A DNA stretch of 64,000 nucleotides from a virus. Positions within the stretch are counted from its first letter, which is position 1, and each line of letters starts with the position of its first letter. The position numbers and the translations under genes are program-made. The stretch is from IMG/VR virus record IMGVR_UViG_3300009068_004979. One strand, 5' to 3'. Under the pieces are notes generated by a model, which was not told the origin of the DNA, searched no databases, and saw only the letters and a program-made list of their open reading frames with translations. This document shows positions 32,646 to 32,852 of this stretch, in pieces.

Positions 32646-32852
32646 TCAATAGAATTTCCACTTTTTATGCCGTATCTGTTTTTTATGCTTGCGAAGTGCG
32701 CTTGGTTTAAGATGACATCTTTTGAGTCTAAGTGTTTCCATCACTTCTGATCTTTGTACTTCTCTAGAGAATTTAGTTAACATTTTTTCAAAGTATGCTT
32801 TATCCATACATTTCTTCTTATCTAGCTTTATTTCCACATTAGTATAATTCAT
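32646..32852 (-). CDS. rpsU: Ribosomal protein bS21 homolog
   Basis: 68 aa basic; FEKMLTKFSREVQRSEVMETLRLKRCHLKPSALRKHK matches the bS21 pattern (E..L..F.R....... R.R....KPS..R). Confidence 0.8.
   Translation of the reverse strand: MNYTNVEIKLDKKKCMDKAYFEKMLTKFSREVQRSEVMETLRLKRCHLKPSALRKHKKQIRHKKWKFY

Follow-up and report, generated by a model that had tools for sequence, protein, structure and literature searches.

The replication module of an uncultured freshwater (lake) T4-like myophage, represented by IMG/VR record IMGVR_UViG_3300009068_004979, contains a small gene that by its sequence is a homolog of the gene for ribosomal protein bS21. The gene (S21) occupies positions 32646-32852 on the minus strand of the 64 kb window (the whole stretch of DNA that was analysed), starts with ATG and encodes a divergent 68-aa protein in which the family core KFSRE, LRLKR and KPS is followed by the C-terminus RHKKWKFY. 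The window encodes gp32, a DnaB/gp41-like helicase, primase, UvsX, UvsY, a UvsW-like helicase and gp43 polymerase, together with a gp46/47-like nuclease, the large terminase, tail sheath, baseplate wedge, PhoH and queuosine-type genes, and its polymerase, terminase and helicase are at most ~30-39% identical to those of cultured phages. The placement of S21 in a replication block, noticed in an earlier reading of the sequence alone (the sequence-only reading), is borne out by its neighbours, which are the genes for the DnaB/gp41-like replicative helicase (33489-34814, minus strand; Pfam DnaB_C, E 4e-29) and the single-strand DNA-binding protein gp32 (31090-31944, minus strand; Pfam gp32, E 1.9e-15), with those for UvsX, the gp43 polymerase and gp46/47-like proteins nearby. 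Both neighbours have a promoter-like site of their own, TTGATT-N16-TACTAT for the helicase and TTGAAC-N16-TATTAT for gp32, each 7 nt ahead of the ATG.

Between these two genes, S21 belongs to a four-gene operon on the minus strand, o107-o94-S21-o215. The operon is preceded by a sigma70-type promoter-like site (33462-33489), recognized by reading the sequence, with a -35 box TTGAC(T) and a -10 box TAAATG that ends 5 nt ahead of the GTG start of o107. The first cistron, o107 (33133-33456), is an optional 107-aa ORF present in some relatives only; promoter and GTG are conserved in the related loci L025, L029 and L032, and loci that lack o107 have a similar box pair ahead of o94. The second cistron, o94 (32849-33133), is a conserved 94-aa ORF, and the TGA stop codon of o94 overlaps the ATG of S21 (ATGA). 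Wherever relatives have S21 at this site, the gene directly adjoins o94 or overlaps it. The sequence directly upstream of S21 is the 3' coding end of o94, in which neither a Shine-Dalgarno (SD) sequence nor a promoter box adjoining the ATG is found. Read from the sequence, S21 is thus the third, internal and translationally coupled cistron of a replication-module operon, and it is not itself promoter-proximal or leaderless. The sigma70-like operon promoter and the coupling to o94 indicate that S21 is probably expressed early or in the middle of infection rather than late.

A helicase-based scan of IMG/VR retrieved 72 related loci, in which the order helicase-(o107)-o94-[S21]-o215-gp32 is conserved. 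A crude coding measure scored o94 low, but tblastn finds it in 60 of the 72 loci (26-71% identity), which marks it as a real gene. It has no Pfam or PHROG match and carries a nearly invariant C-terminal motif, SLYKSKY[IV]xK[FY]LN. The gene lies at the position where T4 has gene 33, but its identification as T4 gp33 found no support, the hhalign comparison being not significant (E 0.61). The fourth cistron, o215 (31976-32623), starts 22 nt past S21 in the window; in relatives the S21 stop codon and the o215 start adjoin or overlap. It shares with the T4 helicase loader gp59 the position just before gp32 and the length (215 versus 217 aa); this candidate identity likewise found no support, as hhalign gave a colinear alignment over the C-terminal third (residues 144-207) that was not significant (E 0.1).

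The assignment of the 68-aa protein to the bS21 family, made at first by inspection, holds up in a profile search. The Pfam profile PF01165 (Ribosomal_S21) matches it with 32.7 bits against a curated cut-off of 27 (E 6.3e-8; positions 10-53 of the 55 in the profile), and the core motifs of the family (the FxR/KxF-basic helix, the basic helix and KPS/T) are present. A profile built from the subfamily of the window protein retrieves bS21 chains of many bacteria from the PDB with E values of 9e-8 to 1e-6, and that of Flavobacterium johnsoniae (7jil_z) with 1e-5. Single-sequence comparison with solved bS21 chains gives weak scores (E ~0.1), yet the alignments run colinearly along the KFSRE-type helix, the LRLKR helix and KPS, all of which are covered in alignments to the bS21 proteins of Staphylococcus aureus, Lactococcus and gammaproteobacteria. 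Four residues, F21, F28, P50 and S51, are invariant among 30 subfamily members. An AlphaFold2 model derived from these 30 family members consists of three helices (pLDDT 85.5). Among 48,161 representative PDB chains its best structural match by VIA is chain 28jw_u of the chlororibosome, presumably the bS21 of that ribosome, with a Z score of 5.9, which is modest for a helical protein, and an rmsd of 3.2 over 63 residues; the plastid bS21 chains 5mmm_u and 6eri_BU superpose with rmsd 2.8-3.0. Foldseek returned Bacillus subtilis bS21 (7qv1_b) as its sole, weak match (E 7.5). The predicted shape of the phage protein, as modelled, appears to resemble that of bS21 on the 30S platform. The gene is under purifying selection, with a median pairwise dN/dS of 0.20 over 58 usable pairs and synonymous differences exclusively in three close pairs.

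The subfamily to which this protein belongs is small, divergent and, in these data, found in phage contigs only. Of 1.84 billion cluster representatives searched exhaustively with phmmer, 8 matched at E<=1e-3, including one spurious repeat protein, and a pattern scan of 185,579 prokaryote species (one genome each, GTDB) found no relative. Neither a nucleotide search with the S21 region nor tblastn with the protein (E 1e-3) gave a match in 50,697 phage records. The PHROG S21 family, phrog_21469, does not match the 68-aa protein but does match other S21 genes of related phages. A peptide-pattern scan of IMG/VR was blank as well, and this reflects a limit of that method, since homologs were later recovered from IMG/VR through the neighbouring helicase. 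The aromatic and basic character of the tail, to which the sequence-only reading had drawn attention, proved to be a property of the whole subfamily, in which a short and very basic consensus, KWK[FYH]x, closes the protein. Residues K64 and W65 are kept in at least 90% of the members, and the Trp lies 14 residues past the Ser of KPS (KPS+14) in 28 of 30. The terminal Tyr of the window protein, however, is not conserved and is often non-terminal or replaced (KHLL, KFHK, KYYN). The C-terminal domain after KPS (CTD) comprises 17-18 residues with a median net charge of +7 and a pI of 11.0; in the window protein it has 17 residues, a net charge of +8 and a pI of 11.3. A Trp tail that varies so little suggests a specialised contact; within the protein, this conserved basic tail is probably what has been adapted to the 16S rRNA of the host or to the 5' ends of mRNAs. 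What appears to be new, judged from sequence comparison, is this phage-contig-only subfamily with a Trp tail at fixed register, its location in an early-type replication operon and its occurrence in a T4-like lineage in which promoters are fused to start codons.

This last feature was analysed in the 45 called genes of the window that have an upstream gap of at least 18 nt. In 27 of them a promoter box ends at the start codon, either TAAATA-N4-7 (15 genes) or TTG-N17-20-TAnn[AT]T-N4-9 (12 genes), whereas shuffled upstream regions yield 1.5 +/- 1.2 such cases, with a maximum of 6 in 1000 shuffles, and internal ATGs score 0.7%. Information content upstream of the 45 genes peaks at -12 to -6, with the pattern T-A-A-A-A/T-T-A. 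The usual sigma70 spacer is 17 bp. A spacer of 16 bp is found in 11 of the 12 sigma70-type sites of the window, in which the -35 box is mostly TTGATT and 6-8 nt separate the -10 box from the start. These 16-bp spacer promoters occur throughout the window (e.g., 34815-34855, 31945-31985 and 30605-30645). The end of the TAAATA box lies 5-7 nt ahead of the start in 16 of 17 sites. Transcription usually begins about 7 nt after the -10 hexamer and, in T4, with the late box at -13 to -6; by these rules the predicted +1 coincides with the A of the ATG or lies 1-2 nt away from it at most. Orthologous upstream regions of diverged sequence retain this spacing; for the gp32 promoter, all 23 distinct upstream regions from loci with S21 at the helicase-gp32 site do so.

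SD-like 4-mers precede 6% of the genes and 4% of control sites, which is background. A perfect AGGAGG at 46140-46155 (minus strand), located within the end of the upstream gene, with 5 nt between it and the GTG of the gene for the gp47-like nuclease, was considered as a case of SD use and rejected, as it is not conserved in the related records G002, G005, G006 and G011. The 33 closely spaced genes include 6 with a 4-nt overlap (ATGA type), 6 with a 1-nt overlap and 4 that directly adjoin their neighbour. The genome layout described in the sequence-only reading, with promoter-proximal genes that appear leaderless (27 of 45 against about 1.5 expected), internal genes joined by overlaps and no SD sites, is therefore real at the level of the sequence, the transcript starts being predicted.

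The TAAATA boxes ahead of the structural genes of the window resemble T4 late promoters (TATAAATA at about -13 to -6; gp55, gp33, gp45). T4 late mRNAs bear leaders with an SD sequence; in the window, by contrast, both promoter classes abut start codons, and they do so genome-wide. As the predicted +1 coincides with the A of the ATG or is adjacent to it, the corresponding messages would resemble leaderless mRNAs such as that of lambda cI (PMC10491246). The start of one orthologous gene, gp32, is found in three styles among the relatives compared with the window (31945-31990), namely loci L024, L028, L030, L036, L040, L058, L063, L067 and L068. The promoter lies on the ATG in the clade of the window, a 17-25-nt A/C-rich leader follows the promoter in the group of L024 and L036, and an AAGGAG SD precedes the gene in L067 and L068.

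TAnnTTTG is the promoter consensus of Bacteroidota, and a box of this type lies ahead of just 2 of the 45 genes. The early promoters of the window, unlike those of Bacteroidota, are classical -35/-10 pairs, which together with the scarcity of TAnnTTTG is weak evidence against a host from the Bacteroidota. The host of a phage that lacks SD sites is probably itself independent of SD sequences. No tRNA genes are found in the window, and psbA is absent from five related records.

The S21 gene is not confined to the helicase-gp32 site, nor to a single protein type. The KWK-tail subfamily occupies this site in 29 of the first 72 loci and in most of the further loci recovered. Besides the window, in which the fraction of leaderless-type genes is 0.60 and SD 4-mers are at background, it does so in record G006 (74% complete; leaderless-type fraction 0.61; SD 4-mers at background), the record of locus L005. 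G006 (157,857 bp) is labelled a provirus by IMG/VR, which is unexpected for a T4-like lytic phage. In G011, a complete relative (100%, 230 kb) with a leaderless-type fraction of 0.55, a KWK-tail S21 lies among structural-looking genes and has its own TAAATA-N4-ATG; SD 4-mers in G011 are near background overall and about 3x control ahead of closely spaced genes. This S21 (L212:1474-1677) adjoins a 275-aa structural-looking gene and looks both late and leaderless. Two other relatives have S21 proteins of other types. The sister phage G002 (88% complete; helicase 65% identical), which has no S21 at the helicase site, encodes a different and more canonical 60-aa S21 (60.8 bits), with a leaderless-type fraction of 0.35 and SD 4-mers at background. 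Its S21 gene (L073:1495-1677) adjoins an array of ~22 tRNAs (L081:16690-19542, L082:11-2947), forming a small 'translation island'. The more distant G005 (100%, 236 kb; helicase 46% identical; terminal repeats) has a third S21 type, an 81-aa ORF (L074:1435-1680), and a leaderless-type fraction of 0.14. In this record SD 4-mers precede ~45% of genes versus 8% of control sites, which shows that S21 carriage is not tied to SD-free genomes.

Some S21 is present in 11 of 11 related records that are estimated at least 74% complete or hold an occupied helicase-gp32 site, and two lineages that seemed to lack it have it elsewhere, as found for G002 in the same record and for L059 in its complete relative G011. 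S21 carriage in this lineage is close to universal, and more than one gain or relocation of the gene has taken place. The leaderless measure, taken over spaced genes, is 0.44 for loci that lack S21 at the helicase site and 0.61 for those with it; a complete S21-free relative was not found in these data (records without an S21 match are estimated only 36-70% complete), so that this comparison does not decide whether S21 presence goes with the leaderless fraction. At least three S21 types occur at different genome positions within this T4-like lineage. S21 type does vary together with start-site style, which, with three independent types, is a lead and not yet a result. The simplest reading is that S21 type and start-site style both track the host, and the occurrence of other S21 types in SD-free G002 and SD-using G005 fits an S21 type that follows the host ribosome.

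[quoted passage not shown] Considering all the evidence, the gene most likely encodes a ribosome-binding, phage-adapted bS21. The reading we favour, to which we assign a probability of roughly 55%, is that of a functional bS21 variant shared by the lineage, which enters the host 30S subunit and tunes initiation on the SD-free messages of the phage. In this pathway, the protein would be made early or in the middle of infection as the third cistron of o107-o94-S21-o215 from a host-type sigma70-like promoter, would bind at the bS21 site of the host 30S subunit, and once bound may tune initiation on SD-free messages, whether leaderless or coupled. A precedent for such an action is the bS21 of the Pelagibacter myophage HTVC008M, which is incorporated into 70S ribosomes of E. 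coli (Mizuno et al. 2019, PMC6375957). Like HTVC008M bS21, the window protein is a small S21-family protein of a T4-like aquatic myophage and is under purifying selection. It differs in its tail, in the lack of tblastn similarity (50,697 phage records, E 1e-3) and of a PHROG S21 match, and in being known here from sequence. The distance of the subfamily from any cellular bS21 counts against a role on the 30S subunit and, with the missing PHROG S21 match, makes a changed function possible; the weak Foldseek match and the modest Z score of the model count against this reading as well. That phage bS21 proteins may be swapped into host ribosomes is already in the literature (PMC6375957, PMC9723584; discussed in PMC9976891 and PMC7550191).

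Another parallel is found in freshwater huge phages that putatively infect Bacteroidota, whose bS21 proteins were proposed to enter host ribosomes and favour phage mRNAs (Chen et al. 2022, PMC9723584). Their bS21 genes lie among terminase, capsid, protease and portal genes, are late and Flavobacteriia-like, and have retained an aromatic residue at the position of Tyr54 (PMC9723584). The window shares with these phages a lake origin and an aromatic residue of interest close to the C-terminus. Unlike the genes described by Chen et al., the window S21 is located in a replication module, between a gp41-like helicase and gp32, under a sigma70-type promoter; its product resembles no cellular clade and, within the subfamily, has K or N at the Tyr54 register with the Trp two residues later. 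The subfamily member of G011 is in this respect nearer to the Chen genes, as it lies among structural-looking genes behind a TAAATA box. A second point of comparison is the bS21 of Gamma- and Betaproteobacteria, whose C-terminal RLY/KLY motif reaches the 30S head and touches h37 and A1167 there (Watson et al. 2020, PMC7550191). The window protein ends similarly in a basic-hydrophobic-Tyr triplet (K-F-Y), but its tail extends 17 residues past KPS whereas E. coli bS21, with 71 aa, has a longer CTD, and the conserved residue of the subfamily is Trp rather than Tyr.

Rather unlikely, in our estimate, is an explanation by plain supply and compatibility, in which a host-matched bS21 would keep the 30S subunit complete and active during infection with no discrimination among mRNAs. 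Cellular bS21 assembles late, is exchangeable and is often limiting. In this T4-like lineage there are at least three S21 types at different positions, and S21 type shifts along with SD usage of the phage, both in favour of a stand-in of this kind. The pattern also fits a tracking of the host ribosome of the sort seen in those phage S21 proteins whose KLY-like tails match their predicted hosts (Watson et al. 2020, PMC7550191). However, a subfamily far from all cellular bS21 found is unexpected for a simple stand-in, and its nearly invariant Trp tail points instead to a specialised contact.

The KWK-tail S21 might also be a lineage-specific ribosome modifier that co-evolved with the genome-wide switch to leaderless and coupled starts and whose short Trp tail, with the protein on the platform, repositions the 16S 3' end or the mRNA exit, a reading that we regard as quite improbable. 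If it were true, starts of 70S or 30S particles on 5'-terminal AUGs and their re-initiation at ATGA overlaps would be efficient, and phage messages would gain an edge over leadered host messages.

Equally doubtful is the takeover proposed in the sequence-only reading, according to which the phage bS21 displaces host bS21 and sequesters the anti-SD, so that SD-led host mRNAs are turned off and leaderless phage mRNAs continue. The proposal fits a phage without SD sites and with promoters on start codons, and the three records with the highest leaderless-type fraction (the window, 0.60; G006, 0.61; G011, 0.55) are those that have the KWK-tail subfamily, while the values are 0.35 and 0.14 in the relatives whose S21 is of another type. 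In addition, bS21 touches the 16S 3' tail (PMC7797042, PMC10491246), and in Bacteroidia it acts with bS18 and bS6 to sequester the anti-SD (Jha et al. 2021, PMC7797042; McNutt et al. 2023, PMC9976891); mimicry of the blocking aromatic residue by a phage bS21 has already been proposed (PMC9723584). The proteins that do so are marked by a weakly basic CTD and by Tyr54, which lies 12 residues past Ser42 of KPS and stacks on A1534, and in many Flavobacteriia a strong SD before the bS21 gene provides autoregulation (PMC7797042). The window protein shares with Bacteroidia bS21 the protein family and a binding neighbourhood at the 16S 3' tail, but it has neither the weakly basic CTD nor Tyr54, and its gene has no upstream SD. 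The occlusion of the anti-SD by the phage protein is accordingly not supported, as the CTD has a pI of ~11 and a charge of +7/+8, and the residue at KPS+12, by an ungapped count from the PMC7797042 numbering that a shifted helix register could alter, is K in the window protein and N in 17, K in 5, F in 3, Y in 1 and others in 4 of the 30 members. Both marks of the Bacteroidia proteins thus fail, and sequestration in Bacteroidia also requires residues of host bS18 and bS6 (PMC7797042).

The supposed shut-off of SD-led host mRNAs with sparing of leaderless phage mRNAs fares no better, since other S21 types occur both in an SD-free relative (G002) and in G005, where ~45% of genes versus 8% of control sites have SD 4-mers. 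The co-occurrence of the KWK-tail S21 with leaderless starts comes from a single lineage and thus counts as one evolutionary event. Furthermore, an SD-free phage suggests an SD-independent host, in which there would be little SD-led translation left to suppress, and S21 itself, as an internal coupled cistron, is not leaderless. In E. coli, the ribosomes with better translation of leaderless lambda cI are those lacking uS2 and bS21 (PMC10491246), so that added bS21 is no obvious aid to leaderless initiation.

Very unlikely, finally, is an exapted S21 fold acting off the ribosome as a small basic nucleic-acid-binding protein in replication or transcription: the location of S21 inside a replication operon, between helicase and gp32 and coupled to o94, its score of 32.7 bits, weak beside those of other S21 genes of the relatives (60.8 and 44.9 bits), and the off-ribosome partnership of bS21 in the OLE RNP (PMC12054373) would all be compatible with it, but the core motifs that define the family are retained and the G011 member lies among structural genes behind a late-type box, which shows that the link to replication genes is not fixed.

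Among ribosomal proteins encoded by viruses, bS21 is the commonest, and to our knowledge nobody knows what a phage bS21 does to translation. If the protein described here is, as we favour, a phage-adapted bS21 of the host 30S subunit, its subfamily offers a clean test case, as it consists of a small and strongly conserved protein with one obvious candidate contact residue, the Trp of the tail. The messages of the phage seemingly need neither leader nor SD, and sister phages with other S21 types and other start-site styles are at hand for comparison. Should the S21 type set the kind of mRNA start that the ribosome prefers, viruses would have a new means of retuning ribosomes; should it not, the phage S21 would be one more host-matched ribosomal spare part.
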